Of a stretch of 64,000 nt of DNA, positions 9,351 through 62,400 are shown one piece after another. Both the position numbers and the translations under genes were made by a program. This DNA comes from Spirochaetia bacterium. Its GTDB lineage: Bacteria; Spirochaetota; Spirochaetia; SZUA-6; Bin103. The stretch is taken from positions 2,080,001 through 2,144,000 of the forward strand of contig OZ241863.1 of NCBI GenBank assembly GCA_965203055.1, read 5' to 3'. Under the pieces are notes generated by a model. It did not search any database and was not told where the DNA came from. It was given only the letters and a program-made list of their open reading frames with translations. Each line of letters begins with the position of its first letter. Position 1 is the stretch's first letter.

Positions 9351-9356
9351 ACCGTG

Positions 9357-10346
9357 ATGGAGCTGCCCCGGCTTACCACCGACCTGGAACGCTGCAAGGC
9401 GGACCTGGAGCGTTGCGGCTACTGCCTGCTGGCGGAGGCGTTGCCGCCGGCGCAGTTGCAGGAGGCGCGCGCACGGCTCAGCGCCCAGGCCGCGGCCGAA
9501 CGCGAGCAGGGCGTGGCCTACATGGACGGCGCGCCCGACCAGCGCTGGGGCGCGTTTACCGACGCCGGCGGCAAGGTGCGCGCGCAGGACTTCGCGGTCG
9601 GCGCCGGCGGCATGAGCCAGCGCCTGTTCATGCTGCTCAACAAGGGCCGGATCTTCGGTGACATCGTGCTCATGGAGCAGGCCCTGGAACTGGTCGGCCA
9701 CGTGCTCGGCGCGCACTACCAGCTCTCCTGCAGCACCGCCAACATCATCGGCACGGGCGCCGCGCCGATGGAACTGCACACCGATGCCTGGTGGATGCCG
9801 CCGCCGGTGCCCCACGGCCGCTTCGGGCTGCCCGTCGGGTCGATTACCCGCGCCGAGGCGGGCGAGGCGCCCTCCCCCGCCCCCATGATCGCGCCGCCGG
9901 CGTGCGTCAACAGCATGTGGCTGCTGGCGGACTTCCACGCCGCCAACGGCGCCACCCGGGTGGTGCCTGGCAGCCACCTGAGCGGGCGCCAGCCGAAGCC
10001 GGCGCTCTATTCCGAAGAAGACCTGGTCGCAATCGAGGCCCCGGCCGGCAGCGCGATGTTCTTCGAAGGCCGGCTGTGGCACGGCTCCGGCACCAACCGC
10101 ACCGACCAACCGCGGATGGGCCTGCTCAACACCTACTGCGGTCCCCAGTTCCGGCCGCAGGAGAACTACACCCTCGGCCTGCTGCCGGAGGTGCTCGCCG
10201 CTGCCCCGTTGCGCCTCAAGGAGCTGGTCGGCCTCAAGGTGTGGAACGGATACGGCCGCTTCGATACCCCGGCGGTCGATCTGATTGACCGTGACCAGCT
10301 CGTCGGCGAACTGACCCCCAGCTCAGCGGCGAGCCTCGCCCGGTAG
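9357..10346 (+). CDS. Phytanoyl-CoA dioxygenase (PhyH) family protein
   Basis: LHTD (HxD), NGATRVVPGSH, LWHGSGTN, FRPQEN. Confidence 0.9.
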   Translation: MELPRLTTDLERCKADLERCGYCLLAEALPPAQLQEARARLSAQAAAEREQGVAYMDGAPDQRWGAFTDAGGKVRAQDFAVGAGGMSQRLFMLLNKGRIFGDIVLMEQALELVGHVLGAHYQLSCSTANIIGTGAAPMELHTDAWWMPPPVPHGRFGLPVGSITRAEAGEAPSPAPMIAPPACVNSMWLLADFHAANGATRVVPGSHLSGRQPKPALYSEEDLVAIEAPAGSAMFFEGRLWHGSGTNRTDQPRMGLLNTYCGPQFRPQENYTLGLLPEVLAAAPLRLKELVGLKVWNGYGRFDTPAVDLIDRDQLVGELTPSSAASLAR

Positions 10347-10354
10347 CGAACGGC

Positions 10355-11935
10355 GTGCGGTTCTTCAACACCACCGGTCCGGTCCGCCGGGACCGGCACT
10401 ATACGGTTCCGCCGTTGAGCCGCCTCGACCTCGACGAAGTGCTCGGCCTGATCCACACCGCGCGCTACTTCGTGCTGCACGCCCCGCGGCAGACCGGGAA
10501 GACTTCCGTGCTGCTGGCACTGCAGAACCTGCTCAACGGCGGCGCCGAGGGCGCCTACCGCTGCCTGTACGTCAACGTGGAGGCCGGTCAGGCGGCGCGT
10601 GAGCGCACCACGCGGGCGATGCGGGCGATCCTCGGCGAACTGGCCCTGCGGGCGCGGCTGGTGCTGGAAGACGACCAGCTCGACGGGACGTGGCCGGAAA
10701 TCCTCGACAGGGCAGGCCCTGACGGAGCGCTCAAGGAGGTGTTGGTGCGCTGGACGCTGGCCGACCCCCGCCCGCTGGTGCTGCTGATCGACGAGATCGA
10801 TTCCCTGGTGGGCGATACCCTGATCTCGGTCCTGCGCCAATTGCGCTCCGGCTATGACCTGCACCCCGACGGCTTTCCGCACAGCGTCGTGCTGTGCGGC
10901 GTACGCGACGTGCGCGACTACCGGATCCGCTCCGGCAGCGAGAACGCCGTCATCACCGGCGGCAGCGCGTTCAACGTCAAGGCGCGGTCGTTGCGCCTCG
11001 GCGACTTCTCGCGCGGCGAGATGCAGGCGCTGCTGGCGCAGCATACCCGGGACACGGGACAGGCGTTCACCGATGGCGCGCTGGAGACCATCTGGACGCG
11101 GACCCGGGGCCAGCCCTGGCTGGTGAACGCGCTGGCGGACGAGACCTGCTTCCGCGACCGGGGCGGCCGCGACCGGGCCCGCCCCGTCACCGCCGGCGCC
11201 GTGCGCGACGCGCAGGAGCAGCTCATCGTGCGCCGCGAGACCCACCTGGATCAGTTGGCGGACAAGCTGAAGGAGGAACGCGTGCGCCGCGTGGTCGAGC
11301 CGCTGCTGAGCGGCGGTGAACGGCGCCACTTCACCGACCGCGATCTCGAATATACGCGCGACCTCGGGCTGGTGGCGCCGGATCCACCGATCCGGATTGC
11401 CAACCCGATCTACGCCGAAGTGGTGCCGCGCGAACTCACCTGGGTGGTGCAGGAGGAGTTCGCGCAGGAGGCCGCCTGGTACGTGGACGCTGACGGCGGG
11501 CTGCAGGTGGACCGGCTGCTGGCGGCATTCCAGGCATTCTTCCGCGAGCACTCAGAACACTGGGTAACCCGGTTCAGCTACCGGGAGGCGGGTCCGCAGC
11601 TTCTCCTGCAGGCGTTCCTGCAGCGCATCGTCAACGGCGGCGGGCGCATCGAACGGGAATTCGGCCTGGGGCGGGGGCGCACCGACCTGCTGGTGGTGTG
11701 GCCGCAGCGCGGGCGGGAGCGCCGGTTCGTGGTCGAGTGCAAGATCCTGCACCGCAGTCTGGAGCGCACCATCAGTCAGGGGCTGGAGCAGACGGCGGCC
11801 TATCTTGACCGCTGCGCCGGCGAGGCGGGCCACCTGGTCATCTTCGACCGCGATGAAGGCAGGCGCTGGGAGGAGAAGATCTTCCACCGGCGGGAGTCGG
11901 CCGGGGGCCGCGCGATCGACGTCTGGGGCATGTAG
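10355..11935 (+). CDS. AAA-like P-loop ATPase with C-terminal PD-(D/E)xK nuclease-like domain
   Basis: Walker A APRQTGKTS, Walker B LLIDEID, C-terminal EREFGLGRGRTDLL...VVECK. Confidence 0.85.
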   Translation: MRFFNTTGPVRRDRHYTVPPLSRLDLDEVLGLIHTARYFVLHAPRQTGKTSVLLALQNLLNGGAEGAYRCLYVNVEAGQAARERTTRAMRAILGELALRARLVLEDDQLDGTWPEILDRAGPDGALKEVLVRWTLADPRPLVLLIDEIDSLVGDTLISVLRQLRSGYDLHPDGFPHSVVLCGVRDVRDYRIRSGSENAVITGGSAFNVKARSLRLGDFSRGEMQALLAQHTRDTGQAFTDGALETIWTRTRGQPWLVNALADETCFRDRGGRDRARPVTAGAVRDAQEQLIVRRETHLDQLADKLKEERVRRVVEPLLSGGERRHFTDRDLEYTRDLGLVAPDPPIRIANPIYAEVVPRELTWVVQEEFAQEAAWYVDADGGLQVDRLLAAFQAFFREHSEHWVTRFSYREAGPQLLLQAFLQRIVNGGGRIEREFGLGRGRTDLLVVWPQRGRERRFVVECKILHRSLERTISQGLEQTAAYLDRCAGEAGHLVIFDRDEGRRWEEKIFHRRESAGGRAIDVWGM

Positions 11936-26290: not shown

Positions 26291-26349
26291 CCCGGCGCCG
26301 CGCGTCTGGTGCTTGACAGCGGCGCCGGCTTGTGGCACGAGACGGGGGG

Positions 26350-27264
26350 ATGCAGAGACCTGACGTTGCCGCGGTGACCGGCGGCCTCGAGGCGGCGAAG
26401 GCGCACCTGGACGAGCACGGCTACTGCGTGGTGGAAGGCGCGATCAGCAGCGCGGCTGCGGCCGCGCTCCGCAAGCGGCTCACCGAGCAGGCCGAAGCGG
26501 AGGCTCAACTCGGCGCGGCCAGCGTGCTCCCGGACAAGAAGCAGCTCATCTACTTTCTCCTGAACAAGGGGCAGGGATTCCGCGACCTGTTGTTCCATCC
26601 GACCATGCGCCAGCTCGTCGGGCACGTCATCGGGCCGCGCTACCTGCTGTCGTCCTACAACGGGCACATCGCCCTTCCCGGCGGTACGACTCGATTCCAC
26701 ACCGATCAGTGGTGGATGCCGCCGCCGACCACCTCCGCCCGGCGCACGCTGCTGCGGCCGGGAGAGATCGCCCGCGACGACCATCGCGGCCACTACCGGC
26801 TCGGCGCGGAGGGCAGCGCTCCGGCAGCCATCGCGCCGGCCTGCGTCTGCAACGTGATGTGGACCGTCGATGACTTCACGGCCGAGAACGGCGCCACCAT
26901 CGTGGTGCCGGGCAGCCACCTGTTCGGGCGCGAGCCCGACCACGAGCTGGACGCGGACGCCGGCTGGAAGCCCGCGGAGGCGCCGGCGGGAAGCTTCATC
27001 GTGCTCGACGGCCGCGTGTGGCACTCGACCGGCGAGAACCGGACCGACCGCGCGCGCATCGGCCTGACCACCAATTTCTGCGCCTGGCAGTTCCGCCAGC
27101 AGGAGAACCTCGCCATGGGGGTCTCCCCCGAAGTCCTGGCGAACGCCTCGACCGAGCTGCTCGATCTGATCGGCTTCCGGCCGACGTTCGGCTACGGGGG
27201 CATCGAGGCGCGGGAGCGCATCGCGCGCGGCCAGTACGCGCTGGGCGAGATGAAGCCCTCGTAG
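26350..27264 (+). CDS. PhyH family dioxygenase (paralogue of 9357-10346)
   Basis: FHTDQWWMPPP, NGATIVVPGSH, VWHSTGEN, FRQQEN. Confidence 0.9.
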   Translation: MQRPDVAAVTGGLEAAKAHLDEHGYCVVEGAISSAAAAALRKRLTEQAEAEAQLGAASVLPDKKQLIYFLLNKGQGFRDLLFHPTMRQLVGHVIGPRYLLSSYNGHIALPGGTTRFHTDQWWMPPPTTSARRTLLRPGEIARDDHRGHYRLGAEGSAPAAIAPACVCNVMWTVDDFTAENGATIVVPGSHLFGREPDHELDADAGWKPAEAPAGSFIVLDGRVWHSTGENRTDRARIGLTTNFCAWQFRQQENLAMGVSPEVLANASTELLDLIGFRPTFGYGGIEARERIARGQYALGEMKPS

Positions 27265-27295
27265 CGTGCAGTCGGAGCACGACAGGAGGATGAAG

Positions 27296-28075
27296 ATGGT
27301 CGACACGGCAACTCCCGCCGGTCTGAAAGATCTGGTGCGAGACGGGTTCGTTCTGGTACCCGGCGCCCTCGATTCCGAAACGGTGGCGGTGTGGAAACGC
27401 ACCCTCTACGACCTGCACCGCCGCGGCCTGAACGAGATCGACAACAGCGTCGGCAACGTGGCCTTCGAGAGTCTGCTGCGGCTGGAGCCGGAGCTGTCGC
27501 GGGGCCTGATCGGCCACGCCAGCACGGCGCCCTATCTCAAGGCGATGCTTGGCCGGCAATGCCAGCTCCGGTCGTTGCGCGCGCACCTCAACCCGCGCGC
27601 CTACCGCCAGGAGTGGCACATGGACTTCGCCGACTACCACTACCAGGAGCGCAACGCCGAGGCCGAGCGGCCGCTGCGCGCCCTGTGCATGAACACAACC
27701 TTCTATCTTACGGACAACACGCCCGAGCGGGGCCGGCTGACGTTCCTGACGAACTACGTCGACCGCCGGCTGCCGGAGGAACTGTTGCCGCACATCCACT
27801 ACACCGACGACCGCAGCAACCCGTTCCAGGCGTGGTGCGACGCGCAGCCGCAGGAGCATCTCTATCCGCGCGCCGGCGACGCCATCGTGTTCCTCGCCCA
27901 CGTCCCGCACCAGGGGGTCAAGTTCGGCGACGACCCGGAAGACGACATCCGCGCCAACTTGGTGCTGCACTACCAGCAGAACCCGATGTATCCGGGCATC
28001 AAATTCGTCAGCACGCCCGACTTCACGCTGCACGCGCTCGGCTACGCCGGCACCTTCCCCTTCGCAACGGAGTAA
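27296..28075 (+). CDS. PhyH-like 2OG/Fe dioxygenase
   Basis: AGGAGG RBS; RDGFVLV, WHMD (HxD), AGDAIVF...HQG. Confidence 0.75.
   Translation: MVDTATPAGLKDLVRDGFVLVPGALDSETVAVWKRTLYDLHRRGLNEIDNSVGNVAFESLLRLEPELSRGLIGHASTAPYLKAMLGRQCQLRSLRAHLNPRAYRQEWHMDFADYHYQERNAEAERPLRALCMNTTFYLTDNTPERGRLTFLTNYVDRRLPEELLPHIHYTDDRSNPFQAWCDAQPQEHLYPRAGDAIVFLAHVPHQGVKFGDDPEDDIRANLVLHYQQNPMYPGIKFVSTPDFTLHALGYAGTFPFATE

Positions 28076-31752: not shown

Positions 31753-31756
<4 letters not shown>
31028..31756 (-). CDS. M48/YgjP (DUF45) family metallopeptidase-like protein
   Basis: SGESVLYLG, KRWGSC, YVVVHELVHL (HExxH); coupled to the hsdR stop. Confidence 0.9.
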
Positions 31757-34769
<3,013 letters not shown>

Positions 34770-34773
<4 letters not shown>

Positions 34774-35999
34774 GCCGCCTCCGTATCCGGAGTCACGCGA
34801 AGCTCACCAGTGAGGAGCACGGACATCAATGCTCGCTTCAACCGTAGACGGGCGCGGACCTCGGCCCTCGCGGACCGTATAAAGCTATTGAACCCATCTG
34901 CGACGTCGACTATCTTCCGCTGTTCATCCAGAGATGGCAAAGGAACCGGAAGCTGGCCATATTCCGTCGCGTTGATGTTCGGTTGCGCCTGGGCGCGCTG
35001 GCGGACCGCCACCCAACGCCAATATACCGCGGTGTTGAGATATTCCTTCAGAAACGCCGGAAGCAGGACACTGCCTCTGGTGCGGAAGCGGACAAGGTAG
35101 CCGGCGAACGCGCAGCGCAAACCGGTATCGTCGTCAACATGAAGGTATGCTTTTCCGACAGTCCCGCTACGAGCGAACAAAATATCACCCGTTCGTAGCA
35201 AGTAACCGTCAGCATCCTGGTCATCGATTCCAACGGCCTCGTCTTTCAGTGCGCCATCATCGTCAATATCGGTGATGCGAATATAACGGATCCCGCCGGG
35301 CTCAAAGTCCCTCTTGGCGACGTTGGCACCGTATTGTCCGCGTGCAATACAAGCATCAGCGAGTGACCGAACGGTCCACCCGTTCGGAATACTCCCAATC
35401 TCTGTCTGCTTGAATCGCGTGTTCCGTCCCGGCAGTCCTCGCGTGAACAGTTCCTGCATCAGTCCGCGCTTGACGATCTTCGCTTGGTCGATGACCGCCT
35501 GGGTCTTCTCGATAGCGTCGTCCACCGAGGAAAGAATCGCGGCAATCTTACGCTGCTCGGAAAGAGGCGGCAGCAGAAACGTAAACTCGCCAAGCTGTTT
35601 CCACGACGTTCTGGGCATCTTTGTACCAGACGACGTGGCGATCGCATGCCACTGCAATCGATTCCACTGCGCAAGCTGGAGCAGGTAAGGCGAGTCAAGA
35701 CCGTCTTTACCAAATAGTGGCAATATGTCGGTCGAACATACTCCATCAAACGGAGCCGCCGCCGCCTTCCGTAGATTCGGGCGAAGTTTGCCGAACAGTA
35801 TATCTCCGGTGTAAAAGACGGTCTTTGCACTGGTCGCACTGCCGGCTGACGACCAGCCAAGAAGCGCGGGACGCCCCTGCGCGAGATGCTCAAGGGCGAC
35901 ATACGGACGGACATCTCCTGCGGCCGGCGTGACCTTCATCAGTCGCTGGTCGGCACACTCACAGAGCCGTCGATGCACCCATCCTTCAGGAGCCTTCAA
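34770..35999 (-). CDS. hsdS: Type I RM specificity subunit
   Basis: Two low-GC TRDs; LPPLSEQRKIAAIL...GLMQELFTRG...TEIGSIPNGW, LPSLDEQRKI...LMSVLLTGELRV. Confidence 0.95.
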
Positions 36000-36067: not shown

Positions 36068-36382
36068 TTATTCGGCGTGGCCGGCGCCATTGTCATCGAG
36101 CTGCTGCTTGAGGCGCCGGAACGTAGCCTCGTCGATGCCGGTGGCCGCCTCTATGATGGACCACGGTACATCGCGTTCCAGGAATCGCTGGATGGTATGC
36201 AACTGTCCCCTCATCTCGCCTTCCTGGCGGCCTTCTTGGCGGCCTTCCTGGCGGCCTTCTTGGCGGCCTTCCTGGCGGCCTTCCTGGCGGGCCTGTTGGC
36301 GGGCCTCCCGGATGCCCTCCCGAATGCCCTCCCGAACACCCTCCCGGATGCCCTCGTCGATCATCTTATGCACGTAGGTCAT
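36068..36382 (-). CDS. Predicted in-frame internal small protein (Rpn-S-like antitoxin), 104 aa
   Basis: AGGAGG at 36395-36390, 7 nt before in-frame ATG 36382. Confidence 0.6.
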   Translation of the reverse strand: MTYVHKMIDEGIREGVREGIREGIREARQQARQEGRQEGRQEGRQEGRQEGRQEGEMRGQLHTIQRFLERDVPWSIIEAATGIDEATFRRLKQQLDDNGAGHAE

Positions 36383-37180
36383 TATCTCTCCTCCTCGGCC
36401 CGGCACGGTCCGCCGCAGCGCGTCCGCGAACGCCTGCTGCTGCTCATTCGACTTCAGCGCCAGCAGCACGTACTCCACATGCAGCGCCACCCCGTCAAAC
36501 CCTGCGACCGGATACAGCTCGTCCACCAACCGTATCATTTGGTTGAGCAAGTCGTCCCAGCCCTCCGAGCCCGCGCGGCGGTACTCGGTCATCATCGCGA
36601 GCTGCGCCAGCCGCGCGCCCAGCGTCCCCTCCACCGACTCCGGGTTCTGCTCGGTCTGGTCGATCAGCAGGTGCTCGAACTGCGGTACCCAACCCAGGGC
36701 GGACTCCGCGCCGGCAACCAACTCCGCGAACTGCCGCGGGAAACGCCACGGTTCGGCTCCCTGATAGAATACCACCGGCACGATCAGCGGCAACCGCGGC
36801 TCCTGCTCGTGCTCGCGGTGCCATTGCATCCAGGCCATCAGGCAGTAATGCAGCAACCGCAGCCGCAGCCAGCGGTCGGGCGTGGACTGATGTTCGAGCA
36901 ACACGAGGACGAGCACCGGAGAGCCGGAGACCTCGCGCTCGACCGAGAACAGCAGGTCGGCCTCGCGGCCGCGCCAGTCGTCACTGACCAAGCGGCTGGG
37001 CAGATGGGTCAGAGTGGTCCACCGCAGCATGCGGGCGAGTTCCTGGGGCAGGCAGGAGCGCAGCAGGCCGGCGGCGTTCTCGCGGTCGGAGAACACGCGG
37101 TAGAAGTACTTGTCGTGCCGCTGGCTGACCGGCGGCGGGTCGGCTGACTGCGGTTGGTCCGATGCGTGATCGTCAGCCAT
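36068..37180 (-). CDS. Rpn family recombination-promoting nuclease (PD-(D/E)xK, YhgA-like)
   Basis: HDKYFYRVFS, EADLLFSV, LLEHQSTPD, LPLIVPVVFYQG, C-terminal EGRQ repeats. Confidence 0.92.
   Translation of the reverse strand: MADDHASDQPQSADPPPVSQRHDKYFYRVFSDRENAAGLLRSCLPQELARMLRWTTLTHLPSRLVSDDWRGREADLLFSVEREVSGSPVLVLVLLEHQSTPDRWLRLRLLHYCLMAWMQWHREHEQEPRLPLIVPVVFYQGAEPWRFPRQFAELVAGAESALGWVPQFEHLLIDQTEQNPESVEGTLGARLAQLAMMTEYRRAGSEGWDDLLNQMIRLVDELYPVAGFDGVALHVEYVLLALKSNEQQQAFADALRRTVPGRGGEIMTYVHKMIDEGIREGVREGIREGIREARQQARQEGRQEGRQEGRQEGRQEGRQEGEMRGQLHTIQRFLERDVPWSIIEAATGIDEATFRRLKQQLDDNGAGHAE
36218..36355 (-). repeat. 12-bp tandem repeats encoding (R/Q)EG(R/I/V) in the Rpn C-terminus
   Basis: CCTTCYTGGCGG-type units (QEGR about six times) and CCCTCCCGRATG-type units (REGI/V about four times). 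Confidence 0.9.
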
Positions 37181-37503: not shown

Positions 37504-37513
37504 GGCTGAGTCT

Positions 37514-37616
37514 GCTAGCCGCCGTAGCCCAGCTCGGCGAGGTAGCGGTTCATGGTCGCTTCGGCGGCGGCGCGTTCCCGCTCCAGCTCGCGGAGCTTGC
37601 GCACCGCGGCCGCCAC
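37514..37616 (-). repeat. Duplicated 3' end of hsdM (copy of 38963-39065)
   Basis: 102/103 identical by direct comparison; single mismatch 37581 C vs 39030 T. Confidence 0.97.
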
Positions 37617-37709
37617 ACACCGCTGCGCCACCAGCCGGCGCGCTAAGGTCACCTCGTCCTCATCCGTAGGGCAGCGCCGGTGGGGAGAACATCGGAGTGG
37701 CGGTGGGCC

Positions 37710-37979
37710 TCACCATTGGAATGACCAGCCCATGCCGCCGGCGGCCTGCACCAGATCGGCCTCCCCGAGCTCGGCGGAGGGCGGCAGGATCAGGTGACTG
37801 GTAGTCGCCGTTTCCTCGTGCACCTCGATGTTGAACTCGGAGGGCACGGTCAGGCCGATTTCCGCCTTGATCGCGGTCTTGGGGTCCGTCATCAATTGGT
37901 TGCGAAACTCGCGGTCCGCGGTCGCCTTTTCGATCAGCTGCTGGCGCAGAGCGCTGACCGTCATCGTCTTCTCGCCCAT
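37710..37979 (-). CDS. NHLP-leader (proteusin-type) RiPP precursor A, core MGWSFQW
   Basis: LIEKATADREFRNQLMTDPKTAI...IEVHEET...HLILPP...ELGEADLVQAAGG leader ending in a double-Gly; GAGGA RBS. Confidence 0.88.
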   Translation of the reverse strand: MGEKTMTVSALRQQLIEKATADREFRNQLMTDPKTAIKAEIGLTVPSEFNIEVHEETATTSHLILPPSAELGEADLVQAAGGMGWSFQW

Positions 37980-38052
37980 ATTCCTCTCCTTCCGGCAGCT
38001 CGCGCAGCATCGATCACGGCAATGTCTGCGCGCTACTCACATTGTCAGATCA

Positions 38053-38081
38053 AATATAGGCAACGTTGGCCAAAGTGTCGA
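38053..38081 (-). promoter_or_regulatory. Sigma70-type promoter of precursor A
   Basis: TCGACA-17 nt-TATATT. Confidence 0.55.
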
Positions 38082-38182
38082 GCCCGTGCACCGAGACGAG
38101 AGAAAATGAGTTATCAGGAAATTCCCGTGGGTGGCGGCGGTGGGATTCCGGCGCCGCCCCACCCACAGCGCCGTCGATGCAC

Positions 38183-38329
38183 CTATCCATCAGGGAACGG
38201 ATGGTCGCGCGCCAGCGTGCTCAGCCACCGCGACACCTTGGCCAAGTCCGCCGCCATCAGGTTGCGGTCGAACCCGTACAGATACCGCTGCGCCACCAGC
38301 CGGCGCGCGAAGGTCACCTCGTCCTCATC
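38183..38329 (-). pseudogene. Degenerate fragment of a type IIG/Eco57I-like N6-adenine methyltransferase
   Basis: Translates DEDEVTFARRLVAQRYLYGFDRNLMAADLAKVSRWLSTLARDHPF, matching the LYGVDxNPMAVxLAKLSLWL motif of that family. Confidence 0.7.
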
Positions 38330-38612
38330 CGTAGGGCAGCGCCGGTGGGGTGAACGACCAGTCGATGCCGCCGGCGGCCTGCGCCAAGTCGGCTTCCCCG
38401 AGCTCGGCGGAGGGCGGCAGGATCAAGTGACCGGTAGTCGCCGTGTCCTGGTGCACCTCGACGTTGAACTCGGAGGGCACGGTCAGGCCGGTTTCCGCCT
38501 CGATCGCGGTCTTGGGGTCCGCCATCAATTGGTTGCGAAACTCGCGGTCCGCGGTCGCCTTTTCGATCAGTTGCTGGCGCAGAGCGCTGACCGTCATCGT
38601 CTTCTCGCCCAT
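38325..38612 (-). CDS. NHLP-leader (proteusin-type) RiPP precursor B, core IDWSFTPPALPYG
   Basis: Leader 74/82 aa identical to precursor A, ends AAGG; GGAGGAGAGGA RBS. Confidence 0.88.
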   Translation of the reverse strand: MGEKTMTVSALRQQLIEKATADREFRNQLMADPKTAIEAETGLTVPSEFNVEVHQDTATTGHLILPPSAELGEADLAQAAGGIDWSFTPPALPYG

Positions 38613-38692
38613 ATTCCTCTCCTCCCGGCAGCTCGCGCAGCATCAATCACGGCATGTCTGCCGCGGCGCGCGCTACTCACTTTGTCAGATCA

Positions 38693-38721
38693 GATATAGG
38701 ATACCGTTGGCCAAATGTCGA
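38693..38721 (-). promoter_or_regulatory. Sigma70-type promoter of precursor B
   Basis: TCGACA-17 nt-TATATC. Confidence 0.5.
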
Positions 38722-38821
38722 GCCCTTGCACCGAGAAAATGAGTTATCAGGTATTTCCGTGGGTAGCGACGGGCGGACTCCGGCGCCGCCCCACCAGGGA
38801 TGAGCCGGCGGTGACCTCAGT

Positions 38822-38944
38822 CAGGCGGTGTGGGAGTTGACCGCCGGGCAGCCGCGGCTGGTCAACGCGCTGGCCCGGGAGGCGTGCTCCGGCGGCGAAG
38901 CGGGGCGCGACCGCACCCGGACGATCAGCGCCGAGGCGGTCCGT
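38822..38944 (+). pseudogene. Internal fragment of an AAA-like ATPase of the same family as 10355-11935
   Basis: QAVWELTAGQPRLVNALAREACSGGEAGRDRTRTISAEAVR aligns with ETIWTRTRGQPWLVNALADETCFRDRGGRDRARPVTAGAVR. Confidence 0.75.
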
Positions 38945-38963
38945 TGTTCCACGAGCTGATCCG

Positions 38964-40832
38964 CTAGCCGCCGTAGCCCAGCTCGGCGAGGTAGCGGTTC
39001 ATGGTCGCTTCGGCGGCGGCGCGTTCCCGTTCCAGCTCGCGGAGCTTGCGCACCGCGGCCGCCACGTCGATCCGTTCTTCTTCCTCCGCGGTGTCCACGT
39101 AGCGGGTGATGTTCAGGTTCCAGTCGTTGCGCTCGATCTCGGCGACCGGCACCACCCGCGCGTACTTCTCCACGTCGGTCCAGGCGTGGAAGGTCCGGGC
39201 GATGCGCTCCAGGTCGCGGTCGCGCAGGCGATTCTGGTTGGTCCCTTCCTCGAACTCCCCGGAGGCGTCGATGAACAGCACCGCGCCTGCGCGCGCGGGC
39301 GGCTTGGCGCGGTTCAGCACCAGCACGGACGCCGGGATGCCGGTGCCGTAGAACAGGTTGGGCGCAAGGCCGATGACCGCCTCGAACAGGTCTTCTGTGA
39401 GCATGCCCTGGCGAATCTTCCCCTCCGCGCCGCCGCGGAACAGCACCCCGTGCGGCATCACCACGCCGAGCCGTCCGGCAGCGTTCAGTACCGCCACCAT
39501 GTGCTGCACGAACGCCAGGTCGCCCTTGGTCTTCGGCGGCAGGCCGAACCGGAAGCGCCCGTGGCCGTCGCTCTCGGCCACCTCGCGGCCCCACTCGTCG
39601 AGGCTGAACGGCGGATTGGCGATCACCCGGTCGTAGCGCAGCAGCTCGCCTTCATCCACCAGCTTCGGGTCGCGGATCGTGTCGCCCTTCTCGATGCGCG
39701 CGTCCGGCAGCCCGTGGAGCAGCATGTTCATCTTGCAGATCGCCCAGGTGCCGAGGTTCTTCTCCTGACCGTGGAGCGTCAGGTCATTCGGATTGCCGCC
39801 CTGCCGCTCGAGGTGATGGGCGCACTCGATCAGCATGCCGCCGGAGCCCGCGGTCGGGTCGCAGACGCGCATCCCCGCGGCCGGCGCCAGCAGCTCGACG
39901 ATCAGCTTGACGACCATGCGCGGGGTGTAGAACTCGCCGCCCTTCTTGCCGGCGTCGTCGGCGAACTGTTCGATCAGATATTCGTAGGCGCGGCCGAGCA
40001 GATCCGGCTCCGCCAAGCGGTCGTTGCGGAGCGAGACTTCGGAGAAGTGCCGCACCAGGCGCGCCAGCACGGTGTCGCGGTTGCGGGCGTCGCCGAGCTT
40101 GCGCTCGTCGTTGTAGTCGATGCCGGCCAGCACGCCTTCGAGCGCGCTGTTCTGTTCCTCCAGCGCCGCGCACGCCTTGTTGAGGGTCTCGCCGATGTTG
40201 GCGGCCGCTTCCCGGATGGCGCCCCACCGCGCCCGGTCGGGCACGAAGAACTGGTGCTCGTCGGGGTCGGTCCAGGCCACCTCTTGGGACACGCCGCCGG
40301 CAATCAGCTTCTCCGCTTCCTCCTCGAAGCGGTCCGACAGCCGCTTCAGGAACAGCATGCCGAAGATGTAGGTCTTGTAGTCGCTGCTGTCGATCGATCC
40401 GCGCAGGATGTCGGCGGCCGCCCACAGGTACTGTTCGAGCTGCGCCACGCTCAGGATGTCGGCCGCCCGCGCCGGCGCGACGGCCGTGGTCGGGTCCGGC
40501 GGCGGACGGGAGGCGCCGGCGGCGGCCGCCGGCGCGGGCGGCGCGGCGGGGCGGACTTGCATCGCCACCGGGACCGGCGCGGCGAGACGCGCGGCAAGAT
40601 CCGCCTTCCGGCGCCCGGAATCGTCCAGATCGAACGCCCGGCACAGTTCCTTCAGACGGTCTCGGGACAGCTCCTGCAGCAGCGCCGTGACCCGCACCTT
40701 GCGCGCGCGGGCCAGCGCGTCCGCGAGTTGCTCCTTGTCGCCGCGGCCGGCGACCGGCAGCGCGTAGCGGTCGGCGCCGGCGCGCAGCTCGCGGCTCGTC
40801 AGTGCGGAAAGGATGGCGCGTTTCGCCGGCAT
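38964..40832 (-). CDS. hsdM: Type I RM methyltransferase subunit with N-terminal extension
   Basis: LWAAADILRG, GEFYTP, DPTAGSGGML, ANPPF, PHGVLFRG, NLFYGTGIP. Confidence 0.97.
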   Translation of the reverse strand: MPAKRAILSALTSRELRAGADRYALPVAGRGDKEQLADALARARKVRVTALLQELSRDRLKELCRAFDLDDSGRRKADLAARLAAPVPVAMQVRPAAPPAPAAAAGASRPPPDPTTAVAPARAADILSVAQLEQYLWAAADILRGSIDSSDYKTYIFGMLFLKRLSDRFEEEAEKLIAGGVSQEVAWTDPDEHQFFVPDRARWGAIREAAANIGETLNKACAALEEQNSALEGVLAGIDYNDERKLGDARNRDTVLARLVRHFSEVSLRNDRLAEPDLLGRAYEYLIEQFADDAGKKGGEFYTPRMVVKLIVELLAPAAGMRVCDPTAGSGGMLIECAHHLERQGGNPNDLTLHGQEKNLGTWAICKMNMLLHGLPDARIEKGDTIRDPKLVDEGELLRYDRVIANPPFSLDEWGREVAESDGHGRFRFGLPPKTKGDLAFVQHMVAVLNAAGRLGVVMPHGVLFRGGAEGKIRQGMLTEDLFEAVIGLAPNLFYGTGIPASVLVLNRAKPPARAGAVLFIDASGEFEEGTNQNRLRDRDLERIARTFHAWTDVEKYARVVPVAEIERNDWNLNITRYVDTAEEEERIDVAAAVRKLRELERERAAAEATMNRYLAELGYGG

Positions 40833-44912: not shown

Positions 44913-46556
44913 GTGGCGCAACACGTAAAGGTTTATCATCCAAAGGGTTACCCTCCCAAGATCAAGGCCGTGGGAATGGCGCCGCGGCCGCCCGCGTTGA
45001 ACGGGAAAACGGTCTACCTGGTAGACTGCCGGTTCGACGACGCCGACCTCCTGATGGCGCAGATGCGCGACTGGTTCGCCGAGCACCTGCCGGCGGTACG
45101 CACCGTGCTGCGCAGCAAGGCGGGGGTGTACACCGACCGCGACCCGGAGCTGTACGACGAGATCCGCGCGCAGGGGGACGCCGCCATCGTCGGCGTGGGC
45201 CATTGAAGCACCTGCGCGCCGGCGGTCGCCGGCCAATGCTTCATCCTCGAAACCGAGTACGGCGTCCCTACCGCCTGCCTGCAGACCCACGTGTTCGAGC
45301 ACTTGGCGCGCGCCTCCTGCCGGCAGCAGGGCATGCCGCGGCAGCGCTTCGCCTTCGTGCGCCAACCGGTGATGGGCAAGTCGCCGGCCGAGTTGCGCGC
45401 CTACGTGGACGGCGCGGACGTGATCACCGGCCGCCCGCTCATGACCGAGGTGATCGGGGCGCTCACCGATCCGGTGTCCGCCGAGGACGCGGCGCAGGTC
45501 AGCTTCGACCGCGCCACCCCGCGCTTCGTGGAGCCCGCCGGCGAAGCGAGCCTGCAGCGGCTGTTTCGGGAGCAGGGCTGGACCGATCAGCTCCCGATCG
45601 TCCTGCCCACCGAGGAGCGCGTGGCGGCGATGCTGGCCGGCACCAGTCAGCCGGCCGAGCGGGTGGTGGGGCGCATGCGCCCTACCGCGCCCCGCGAAGC
45701 GTGGGAATACACCGTGGAGAAGGTCGCGGTGAACGCCGTCATGGCGGGGGCGGAGCCGGCCTATTTCCCGGTGATCCTGGCGCTGGCGGCGAGCGAGGTG
45801 TCGGCGCGCCACAGCACCACCAGCTCGGCGGCCGGCATGGCGATGGTGAACGGTCCGATCCGCGACGAGATCGGCATGAACTGCGGCATCGGCGCGCTCG
45901 GCCCCTACAATCATGCCAACGCCACGATCGGGCGCGCCTACGGCCTGCTGTCGCAGAACCTGCAGGGCGGGTCCGAACCGCAGGTGACCTATCTCGGCTC
46001 GCAGGGCAACGGCTACGCCTACGGCAGCCTGACCTTCGCCGAGAACGAGGCGGCCAGTCCGTGGGAGCCGTTCCACGTCCAGCACGGCTTCGCGCCGGAG
46101 GCGAGCGCGGTGAGCCTGTTCGCCGGCAATCGCTCCACCTCGTTCCACCTCGGGCTGCGGCAGCGGTATTGGCGCACCCACGTGCGCAATCTGCTGCGCG
46201 GGATGAATCCGCACAGCCCGCCTACCTTTCTGCTGGACCCGATCGCGGCGCGGCTGTTCGTCGACCGCGGCGGCTTCGATACCAAGGAGAAACTGATCAA
46301 TTGGATCTACGACAACGCGCGGATGGAAGCGCAGGTGTACTGGGACTACCAGCTCGTCCAGAACTACGTGTATCCGCGCGCGCTGCAGGGCGAGGAACCC
46401 TATGCCACCTGGTTGGCCGCGGCGGACGACGAACTGATTCCGATCTTTCCGCGCGGCCACATTCACGTGCTGGTGGTTGGCGGCGAAACCAACGGGTACT
46501 GGCGCATCATGGGCAACAGCTATCAGAAGACGGTATCGATCGATGAGTGGCGCTGA
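44913..46556 (+). CDS. UGSC-family (seleno)protein, 547 aa, Sec at TGA 45204-45206
   Basis: ORFs 44913-45206 and 45291-46556 share a frame; read-through gives AIVGVGH-U-STCAPAVAG...LETEYGVPT; SECIS-like hairpin follows. Confidence 0.82.
45204..45243 (+). promoter_or_regulatory. Bacterial SECIS-like element
   Basis: UGA, 11 nt, GCCGGC-GGUC-GCCGGC (45218-45233); lower stem UGAAGCA (45204-45210) pairs with UGCUUCA (45237-45243). Confidence 0.75.
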
Positions 46557-61245: not shown

Positions 61246-62400
61246 GTGAGCGAGCAGCGTCCGCCGCTTGCGGTGGCCCCGCCGGTGCGGCCGATGTTGG
61301 CCAGGCGCGTGGCCGCGCTGCCGGCGGGAGATCACTGGTCGTTCGAGCCCAAGTGGGACGGCTTTCGCACCCTGGTGTTCCGCAACGGCGCGGAGCTGTT
61401 GTTGCAGAGCCGCGACCTCAAGCCGCTGAACCGCTACTTTCCCGAATTGGTCGAGCCGCTGCTGGCGCAGCTCCCGGAGCGCTGCGTGGTGGACGGCGAA
61501 CTGGTGATCGCCGGCGCCGGCGGGCTGGAGTTCGAGTCGTTGCAGCTGCGCATCCATCCCGCGGCCTCGCGGGTGGCGTTGCTGGCCGCCCGCACGCCGG
61601 CGGCGCTGGTGGCGTGGGACCTGCTGTGCCTGGCGGACCGCGACCTGACCGCAGCGCCGTTCGCCGACCGCCGCGGCCTCCTGGAGCAGGCGCTGAGCGC
61701 GGCCCGGGCGCCGCTGCATCTCACGCCCGTCACCCGCGACCGCAGCCGCGCCGAAGACTGGTTCGAGCGCTTCGAAGGCGCCGGCCTGGACGGCATCATG
61801 GCGAAGGACCGCGCCGCAGCCTACCAGCCGGGCAAGCGCGCCATGCTCAAGGTGAAGCACCGGCGCACCGCGGATTGCGTGGTGGCCGGGCTGCGCTGGC
61901 ACCGCGGGGCGCCGGAGGAACGGGTGGGATCGCTGCTCCTCGGACTGTTCGACGACCGGCGGCGGCTGCATCACGTCGGCGTCGCGGGGAGCTTCAGCAC
62001 CGCCCGCCGGCGCGCCCTGGTCGAGGAGCTGCGCCCCTACCGGGAGGTGGACGAGACCCATCCGTGGCACGCCCGGATCAGCGCCGCAGGCGCCGCGGCC
62101 GCGCCGGCCGGTGCGGAGGCGCCGCAGTCCGCGCCCGGGCTGCGCGTTCCGGGCGGCGCCAGCCGCTGGAGCGGCGGCAAGGACCTGAGCTGGGTGCCGT
62201 TGCGGCCGGAACTGGTGGTCGAGGTGAGCTACGACCACATGCAGGGGACGCGCCTGCGCCACACCGCTCAATTCGTGCGCTGGCGCCCCGACAAGCCTCC
62301 CGCCGAGTGCACCTACGACCAGCTCGAAGTCACCCCGCCCTACGAACTGGCGCGCATCTTCGGCATCTCCGGCATATCCGGCATATCCGGCTCCGCTTGA
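61246..62400 (+). CDS. ligC: ATP-dependent DNA ligase, LigC-like
   Basis: RPMLA, EPKWDGFR, VDGEL, GLDGIMAK, MLKVK, RWRPDK. Confidence 0.9.
   Translation: MSEQRPPLAVAPPVRPMLARRVAALPAGDHWSFEPKWDGFRTLVFRNGAELLLQSRDLKPLNRYFPELVEPLLAQLPERCVVDGELVIAGAGGLEFESLQLRIHPAASRVALLAARTPAALVAWDLLCLADRDLTAAPFADRRGLLEQALSAARAPLHLTPVTRDRSRAEDWFERFEGAGLDGIMAKDRAAAYQPGKRAMLKVKHRRTADCVVAGLRWHRGAPEERVGSLLLGLFDDRRRLHHVGVAGSFSTARRRALVEELRPYREVDETHPWHARISAAGAAAAPAGAEAPQSAPGLRVPGGASRWSGGKDLSWVPLRPELVVEVSYDHMQGTRLRHTAQFVRWRPDKPPAECTYDQLEVTPPYELARIFGISGISGISGSA

Follow-up and report, generated by a model that had tools for sequence, protein, structure and literature searches.

The 64-kb stretch of DNA analyzed here (the window; contig OZ241863.1 of a Spirochaetia bacterium) holds a Type I restriction-modification (R-M) operon in which a 1.35-kb block with two tandem genes, A and B, lies between hsdM and hsdS. 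Each gene codes for a small peptide with a leader of the NHLP type, and the locus raises the question of which enzyme, if any, such peptides are substrates for, and how they came to lie in an R-M operon. We read A and B as orphan paralogues of a family of NHLP precursors that have Trp in the core and lack Cys, and whose cognate enzyme is most likely an unannotated prenyltransferase of the ABBA fold. As a whole this reading is held with middling confidence.

The two genes are in the minus orientation, head to tail, and both are intact. Precursor A (37710-37979) has 89 amino acids, an 82-residue leader ending in AAGG followed by the core MGWSFQW, and precursor B (38325-38612) has 95, a leader of the same length followed by the core IDWSFTPPALPYG. 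Both matched the NCBIfam model TIGR03793 ('leader_NHLP') above its cut-off of 50.9 bits (68.2 bits for A and 62.9 bits for B, covering profile positions 4-77 of 77), and both also exceeded the gathering score of Pfam NHase_alpha. An additional Pfam accession, PF27793.1, is attached to two relatives, P0018 and P0021, in a precomputed domain list; it does not appear in the Pfam scan of A and B. The leaders are identical at 74 of 82 residues, the differences amounting to eight non-synonymous and five synonymous changes, and they end in ...LILPPSAELGEADL(V/A)QAAGG. This is a Gly-Gly type cleavage motif, ahead of which come a stretch rich in Pro and an LxxxxL motif that reads LGEADL in A and B; these features are described for a leader of this kind in PMC10858898. 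The genes are part of a longer repeat. A 300-nt block of 94% identity recurs at a spacing of 633 nt, with more blocks on both sides; the unit spacing over all blocks is 632-665 nt, and the alignment of the two units has a mean column identity of 89%, gap columns counted. The G+C content at third codon positions (GC3) is 0.87-0.88 (0.87 in A), similar to that of the window's real genes.

Inspection by eye showed that both start codons are preceded, at 6 nt, by the ribosome-binding site AGGAG. Unit A has a promoter-like site at 38081..38053 on the minus strand (TCGACA-17-TATATT, 10 of 12 matches), the only sigma-70-like site found where 0.2 was expected by chance. The homologous site of unit B (38721..38693, minus strand, TCGACA-17-TATATC) was also read by eye; the scan did not flag it because it has C, not the required T, at position 6. 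An earlier note on this DNA had described two tandem NHLP-leader precursors with these leaders and cores, each with its own ribosome-binding site and promoter. All of it agreed with the sequence and the profile scores, the scan-flagged promoter being that of unit A and the other a site recognized by its homology. A and B are genuine NHLP-leader precursors.

A genome scan located seven related loci (L001 to L007) in chromosomes of metagenome-assembled genomes. They lie on contigs of Spirochaetia (OZ241907.1, with two loci, and OZ251575.1), Binatia (OZ251459.1 and OY282432.1) and Gammaproteobacteria (OZ242023.1 and OZ241870.1). In addition, a protein search returned 28 close homologues of A and B (58-99% identity, 86-129 amino acids) with near-constant leaders. 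The cores in the family follow the pattern x-[D/G/S/N]-W-x...W(R), as in FDWSQVGWR, FDWNSVGWR, FSWENVGW, WSWDEVGWR and IDWGEVGWR; others read YDWSTFGQNW, YDWSAFATW, IDWSGVGQWEEGRTYDEVMNS, IDWSVPGGGGGGMGDISLDW and GINWSALTRP. Core A is typical, with W-x3-W at the C-terminus, and recurs in the relative P0004 (97% identical). The C-terminal Trp of core A is absent from core B, which recurs in L001 and in the relative P0001. The first core Trp is present in at least 90% of alignment rows. All 32 unique cores that were parsed by machine, from the relatives and the precursors of the seven loci, contain Trp and none contains Cys, and the same is true of seven cores of L004 that fall outside the parser pattern and were read by eye. 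Of the core residues 11% are Trp; of the 3649 leader residues none is. A terminal W or WR is present in 14 of the 32, and single-Trp cores exist (INWSALTRP, the VSWADPNVRFK type and the B type). A and B thus belong to a tight Cys-free family with Trp in every core; the absence of Cys, which the note had pointed out for the two window cores, extends to the family.

Synonymous divergence between the leaders of A and B and those of the Binatia loci L003 and L004 is 0.25-0.39, and that from the Spirochaetia cluster L002 is 0.07-0.15. Since the values between phyla are so low, these comparisons suggest that the precursor genes have recently spread by horizontal transfer between bacteria of distant kinship.

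No partner for A and B was found in the window. Pfam scans were carried out on sets of 45, 22 and 34 translated open reading frames (ORFs), which together cover the whole window, with every gap between confident genes, and in which some ORFs were scanned repeatedly. They gave no match to radical S-adenosylmethionine (rSAM) enzymes, YcaO, LanM/LanC, Trp halogenases or C39 peptidases among the window translations, as the earlier note had stated for the 64 kb. The NHLP exporter pair TIGR03796 and TIGR03797 is also absent from the 64 kb, and neither a polyprenyl synthase nor a histidine kinase was matched in the window or in the seven related loci. When all six frames of the window were searched with profiles of the precursor family and of its putative partner enzyme (see below), A and B were the sole precursors detected and the enzyme profile gave nothing better than E 0.74; tblastn gave the same result. 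What the Pfam scans did identify were transporters, sugar and amino-acid metabolism, the Type I R-M system, and Rpn/YhgA-like, DUF2442, NYN and DNA ligase proteins. A and B are therefore orphans within 64 kb, and because enzyme and exporter are both missing there, they could only be matured in trans. Processing in trans is made plausible by the Spirochaetia chromosome OZ241907.1, on which about 545 kb separate an orphan copy of B type (L001) from a full cluster (L002). The idea of dispersed substrates matured by an enzyme encoded elsewhere, also put forward in the earlier note, is accordingly a plausible one.

The related loci indicate what such an enzyme may be. Directly downstream of the NHLP precursors in four of the seven (L002, L003, L004 and L007) there is a gene for a protein of 337-407 amino acids. 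It starts within about 150 nt of the precursor stop codon, and in L003 the start of its longest ORF overlaps the precursor end. Together the four loci hold five of these genes, with mutual identities of 37-82%. In L002 two precursors and this gene are accompanied by an ABC-2 exporter set. The locus L004 (OY282432.1, 183-17588) has 13 NHLP precursors of three leader types, eight of them ending in Trp, two copies of the neighbor protein (37% identical), a JmjC-type protein, a 110-amino acid protein, an HlyD-like protein and exporters that match TIGR03796 (891.7 bits, cut-off 853.3) and TIGR03797 (748.4 bits, cut-off 709.4). A squalene-cyclase-like match at L004:16575-17588 was sub-threshold (18.5 bits against 26.1). 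As the locus starts inside the cluster, the cluster may be larger than what was seen.

The neighbor protein has no annotation. Six members gave no Pfam match at E<=10, an NCBIfam scan gave no match either, and the protein is not a member by sequence of Pfam Trp_DMAT, PTase_Orf2 or the cyanobactin prenyltransferases. It has at least 175 homologues, and none of the 120 listed has a Pfam domain or a name in its source. An AlphaFold2 model built from a 43-sequence alignment (pLDDT 92.1, pTM 0.89) consists of alternating beta-beta-alpha-alpha units with paired strands and helices. A Foldseek search of the PDB with this model gave 87 matches at E<=0.001, and the matches listed were all ABBA aromatic or indole prenyltransferases. 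They comprise EpzP, AmbP1/AmbP3, IptA, CymD, PriB, FgaPT2, and 5- and 6-DMATS, as well as NphB/Orf2, CloQ, FamD1, AnaPT and DMATS1; many of them act on indole or Trp. DUF5838, Trp_DMAT and PTase_Orf2 appeared as lower-rank leads in a protein-atlas search (scores of 0.88-0.89). Ten residues on predicted strands are invariant in the family (E59, E126, Y127, D128, R215, R270, E274, K336, K348 and Y350 in the numbering of L002). Invariant Arg, Lys, Tyr, Glu and Asp would be expected of an active diphosphate-binding barrel, and the diphosphate site of the model is putative. Prediction of a complex between the enzyme and precursor A gave a score of 0.34, while the best control scored 0.02, with at least 65% contact agreement between runs, a partner pLDDT of at least 73 and self-built alignments. 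Among 157 solved complexes 116 attain the mark used for such predictions, as do 2 of 215 mismatched pairs; scores at or below 0.60, however, stem from only 18 of these 157 and from both of the mismatched pairs that passed. The predicted complex thus lends weak support to the pairing. Most likely, the neighbor is both a prenyltransferase of the ABBA (PT-barrel) fold, as yet unannotated, and the cognate enzyme of the family.

Several findings weigh against this assignment. The evidence for the enzyme is its predicted fold, and the fold match is moderate, with TM-scores of 0.41-0.55, root-mean-square deviations of 6.5-9 Å and identities of 7-17%. Searching the PDB with a profile of the neighbor family identified no prenyltransferase relative by sequence. 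No gene for isoprenoid supply was seen beside the clusters in the ORF scan of the seven loci, and three of these loci (L001, L005 and L006) are themselves orphans. The chemistry may then be another one. The neighbor could be a scaffold or a leader binder that does not prenylate, or it could alkylate a residue other than Trp; alternatively, the W-x3-6-W element could be cross-linked by a cytochrome P450 or rSAM enzyme encoded elsewhere. The conserved spacing of the two Trp residues in many cores would fit a cross-link, and the moderate fold match without a sequence link to active prenyltransferases would fit a non-prenylating protein. Some ABBA-fold proteins of RiPP (peptide made by the ribosome and modified after translation) clusters, such as PatF, are inactive. 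However, neither P450 nor rSAM was seen in the seven loci, several cores have a single Trp, and the charged and Tyr residues on the predicted barrel strands are invariant. We consider such other chemistries improbable.

Bromination was the chemistry favored in the earlier note, which linked the window precursors to the srp proteusins of sponge microbiomes and proposed that a flavin-dependent halogenase acting in trans brominates the terminal Trp of core A. There are reasons for this proposal. Core A does end in Trp, and SrpI is described as brominating the C-terminal Trp of peptides with NHLP leaders and as tolerating foreign cores and leaders (PMC10858898). Furthermore, A and B share with the SrpE leader the Pro-rich stretch, the LxxxxL motif (the region read by SrpI in SrpE, according to the same source) and the GG end, and srp precursors, as described, also have very short cores, often with a terminal Trp, and are spread across bacterial phyla. 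The srp core, in contrast, is LCCCW, and its cyclodehydration by YcaO precedes bromination by SrpI, as stated in PMC10858898 and bioRxiv 10.1101/2023.06.09.544420; none of the 32 parsed cores of the present family holds Cys. Neither in the window nor among 90 ORFs scanned across the seven related loci was a halogenase or YcaO found (nor, in the latter, rSAM, P450 or LanM), the conserved neighbor is prenyltransferase-like, and many family cores end in WR or have no terminal Trp. Because LCCCW, YcaO and SrpI define srp and differ here, A and B should not be filed under srp. The halogenase view is, in our opinion, highly improbable, and leader-guided prenylation of Trp is the more likely chemistry.

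How, then, would the prenylation proceed? In the mechanism that we propose, the ABBA-fold enzyme would bind the long NHLP leader and prenylate the indole of a core Trp, after which a C39-peptidase ATP-binding cassette (ABC) exporter would cleave behind the GG and export a short lipidated peptide of 7-21 residues. A and B, if expressed, would depend on enzyme supplied in trans, and a small peptide carrying a lipid is a likelier product than one carrying bromine. A wider reading is offered more tentatively than the assignment of A and B itself. It holds that the neighbor proteins (at least 175) make up a large unannotated family of leader-dependent ABBA enzymes that lipidate Trp in linear Cys-free NHLP cores, that the products are tiny prenylated signals or toxins similar to ComX, that the genes cross phyla, and that scattered precursors with promoters of their own in R-M and toxin-antitoxin islands widen the range of products in trans.

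The origin of the window copies could be followed base by base. Upstream of unit B, 109 nt align at 92% identity with the intergenic sequence ahead of the clustered precursor of L002, in a match that reaches 38820 in the window and 9808 in L002; for both units the upstream homology to L002 reaches the point at which the preceding ABC-2 permease gene ends. Owing to this homology, the promoter that each unit appears to own is the native one of the cluster. At the 3′ side, unit B is fused to part of a DNA methylase gene of the MmeI/Eco57I type (38195..38331, minus strand). The 137 nt of this fragment match, at 92% identity, L001:7706-7842, which lies inside a 1494-amino acid MmeI-like ORF. Unit A ends in a shorter copy of it (37614..37666, minus strand; 91% over 53 nt to L001:7790-7842), which was also detected as a direct repeat. 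The fragment is joined at the identical point in A, B and L001, with lengths of 53, 137 and about 40 nt, respectively. Matches in a plasmid collection were to methylase genes only, annotated as DNA methyltransferase and located under the tail of unit B; the precursor had none. Both A and B go back to a copy that departed from a cluster together with the native promoter and became joined to the methylase fragment.

The difference between the two cores is due to a single indel. A 32-nt stretch of A (37691..37722, minus strand), bordered by a short (A/G)TTC repeat, is absent from B and L001 in the alignments. Within it lie the Q and W codons, the TGA stop codon and the beginning of the 3′ untranslated region (UTR). 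In its absence translation of B crosses the former UTR (TPPALPY) and halts at a TGA in the methylase fragment, so that the last eight residues of precursor B are read-through of the former 3′ UTR. B is the derived form, because core A fits the family pattern, with W...W at the end, and core B does not. Core B is thus a deletion read-through that lost the second Trp and the stop codon, not a designed variant. The part of the earlier note that took the constant leaders and variable cores as a library is misleading for A and B. What looks like a 'variable core' can result from a deletion, which is relevant to the counting of RiPP 'libraries'. Two small ORFs that follow the precursors, 38183-38317 and 37515-37652, had been considered as N-terminal fragments of a partner enzyme and were rejected: their alignment to the family was spurious and tblastn was empty. 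The former consists of methylase and hsdS-start fragments and the latter of a methylase fragment and a copy of the hsdM 3′ end.

The surroundings of the block bear similar marks. On the minus strand, hsdM (38964..40832; Pfam N6_Mtase, 341.8 bits, and HsdM_N) precedes the insert, and hsdS (34770..35999, minus strand) and hsdR (31753-34773) follow it, with a DUF2442 gene (start at about 37503) and an Rpn/YhgA-like (Transposase_31) gene (36068-37180, minus strand) between the insert and hsdS. The last 106 nt of hsdM are duplicated at the downstream edge of the insert. A repeat search placed the true 3′ end of hsdM at 38960..39065 and its copy at 37511..37616, 98% identical at a spacing of 1449. 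Between the tail of unit B and unit A lies a fragment (38155..38194, minus strand) that is 85% identical to the start of hsdS (35951-35990). Direct repeats also surround the orphans of L001 (about 103 nt, 9741-9842 and 10307-10409) and L006 (194 nt, 9586-9779 and 11604-11797), and all the orphan units bracketed in this way, those of the window, L001 and L006, are in R-M or toxin-antitoxin islands. Junction microhomology is short, for example GCCGGCTGG in L001. The flanking duplications look like the outcome of duplication-insertion by template switching. A diversity-generating retroelement was considered for the 106-bp repeat and dropped, since the copies are 98% identical, with one C/T difference by eye. 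The spacer at 38796-38959 was considered as an AAA-ATPase fragment and discarded as well, with no Pfam match and no tblastn match at E<0.03 in the loci. NYN genes are found beside the precursors of L005 and L006 and upstream of the window hsdM, and a link was not upheld, since comparison of the proteins gave no specific relationship (best E about 5).

Two features of the neighboring genes were recorded. The HsdM protein has an N-terminal extension of about 130 amino acids with a SAP domain match (27.1 bits) ahead of HsdM_N. The Rpn/YhgA-like gene contains eight overlapping copies of a 12-nt tandem repeat (36194-36325), which code for REGI/RQEG repeats near the C-terminus.

A history of this kind raises the alternative that A and B are inert relics, debris of a RiPP cluster that hitch-hiked into the R-M island by duplicative rearrangement and is unexpressed or never matured. 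They are surrounded by gene fragments (the methylase and hsdS-start fragments and the 106-bp hsdM duplication), core B is a deletion read-through without the second Trp, 64 kb contain neither enzyme nor exporter, and two relatives, P0025 and P0026, are frameshifted. The ratio of non-synonymous to synonymous substitution rates (dN/dS) points the same way, with values of 0.5-1.9 among the closest copies: 0.50 for A versus B and 1.9 for A versus L001, the latter on seven changes; comparisons with more distant copies gave 0.4-0.6. Selection on the leaders would accordingly seem weak, or hard to resolve with very few changes, and the debris at the flanks, the lost Trp, the frameshifts and this weak selection count both against functional orphans and in favor of relics. 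Both ORFs are nevertheless intact, and the ribosome-binding site and promoter region are conserved. The exact core A is found again in P0004, and core B in L001 and P0001, whose leaders have diverged to 91% identity with that of B, and a related chromosome retains an orphan copy alongside a full cluster. In sponge symbionts, which are of another clade, NHLP precursors topped transcription among RiPP-cluster genes, as reported in bioRxiv 10.1101/2023.06.09.544420. We regard the relic explanation as the less likely one and rather doubtful, and yet it keeps substantial weight, because selection is weak or poorly resolved. Orphan substrates of a prenyltransferase-like enzyme remain our preferred reading.

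Other features of the window were noted along the way. Three genes for PhyH-family Fe/2-oxoglutarate dioxygenases (plus strand; 9354-10346, 26332-27264 and 27266-28075) are located inside ABC peptide/sugar transporter operons, and nothing was seen that ties them to the A and B precursors. Domains of an ATP-dependent DNA ligase (DNA_ligase_A_M and DNA_ligase_A_C) are encoded at about 61290-62397 (plus strand), in a frame missed by the GC3 filter. A 547-codon frame at 44913-46556 (plus strand) has one TGA, at 45204-45206, within an H-U-S-T-C motif. With this TGA read as U, the frame matches Pfam UGSC at 84.2 bits (positions 2-160 of the 172 in the profile), up from 41.2 bits (positions 2-92), which makes it a candidate selenoprotein judging by its sequence. 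An Rfam search over 36-41 kb gave only two COG2908 matches, which at 20 bits are both below the gathering score (58.7).

Both elements of the proposed chemistry would have precedents, Trp prenylation of an NHLP-type precursor in PalQ and a leader-dependent ABBA enzyme in MppC. PalQ of Paenibacillus alvei prenylates the C-terminal Trp of the NHLP-type peptide PalX, the core of which is DNVRRFFW (PMC10853753). As described there, PalX and the present family have in common the NHLP-type leader and a core that is short, linear and free of Cys; the C-terminal Trp is conserved in PalX and is found in some cores of the family, such as A. A further resemblance is that the Pal cluster is a minimal one, with a precursor and one lipidating enzyme, in which the leader enhances the modification. 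The systems differ in the enzyme, which has the isoprenoid-synthase (ComQ-like) fold in PalQ and the ABBA fold in the neighbor protein. By the same description, the Pal cluster includes a histidine kinase, whereas none was seen in the loci studied here; in addition, the leaders of this family end in GG and one of its clusters has C39 exporters. MppC of Moorena producens is an ABBA enzyme that needs the long Nif11 leader of MppE and geranylates one of two core Trp residues (PMC12715784). Compared by its published description only, it resembles the proposed enzyme as a soluble ABBA prenyltransferase that requires a long structured leader and modifies one specific core Trp, by geranylation at C5. 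It differs in that its leader is Nif11 and not NHLP and that it prefers a core cyclized by LanM through lanthionine, while the family studied here is without Cys or LanM.

A and B are in themselves ordinary NHLP precursors, and the term 'proteusins', used for them in the earlier note, suits them only in the loose sense of the NHLP leader. Unlike strict polytheonamide-like proteusins, they are not accompanied by an rSAM epimerase or other polytheonamide-type tailoring enzyme in the window or among the 90 ORFs of the seven loci. In prochlorosin libraries many ProcA precursors, with near-constant long leaders and differing cores, are served by one ProcM, and some are encoded far from the enzyme gene. 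The 13 precursors and two enzyme copies of L004 recall this arrangement; the enzyme class and the chemistry are different, and the core difference between A and B in the window is a single deletion and not a diversified library. ComX/ComQ pheromones are small secreted peptides with a prenylated Trp as their key feature. Their precursor lacks an NHLP leader, their enzyme has another fold, and no signaling genes were seen near the clusters described here; by analogy with the prenylated Trp of ComX, a signaling role for the products is possible.

A search of the literature, with most subscription journals outside its coverage, found no report of an NHLP precursor in combination with an ABBA prenyltransferase. 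A and B point to such an enzyme-substrate pairing, unreported as far as was found, in which an NHLP leader and a linear Trp core go with an ABBA-fold prenyltransferase-like protein. As this enzyme family has no Pfam or NCBIfam model, tools based on family models may overlook clusters of this type. The locus is of interest mainly for the unannotated enzyme family and for orphan copies whose descent can be traced. Should the chemistry be confirmed, these copies would provide a concrete test of maturation in trans, with orphan precursors whose origin can be traced base by base, and the enzyme would be a leader-guided biocatalyst for the lipidation of Trp in linear peptides. It would also represent a third route to Trp-prenylated ribosomal peptides, beside that of ComQ and PalQ and that of the cyanobactin and MppC type.

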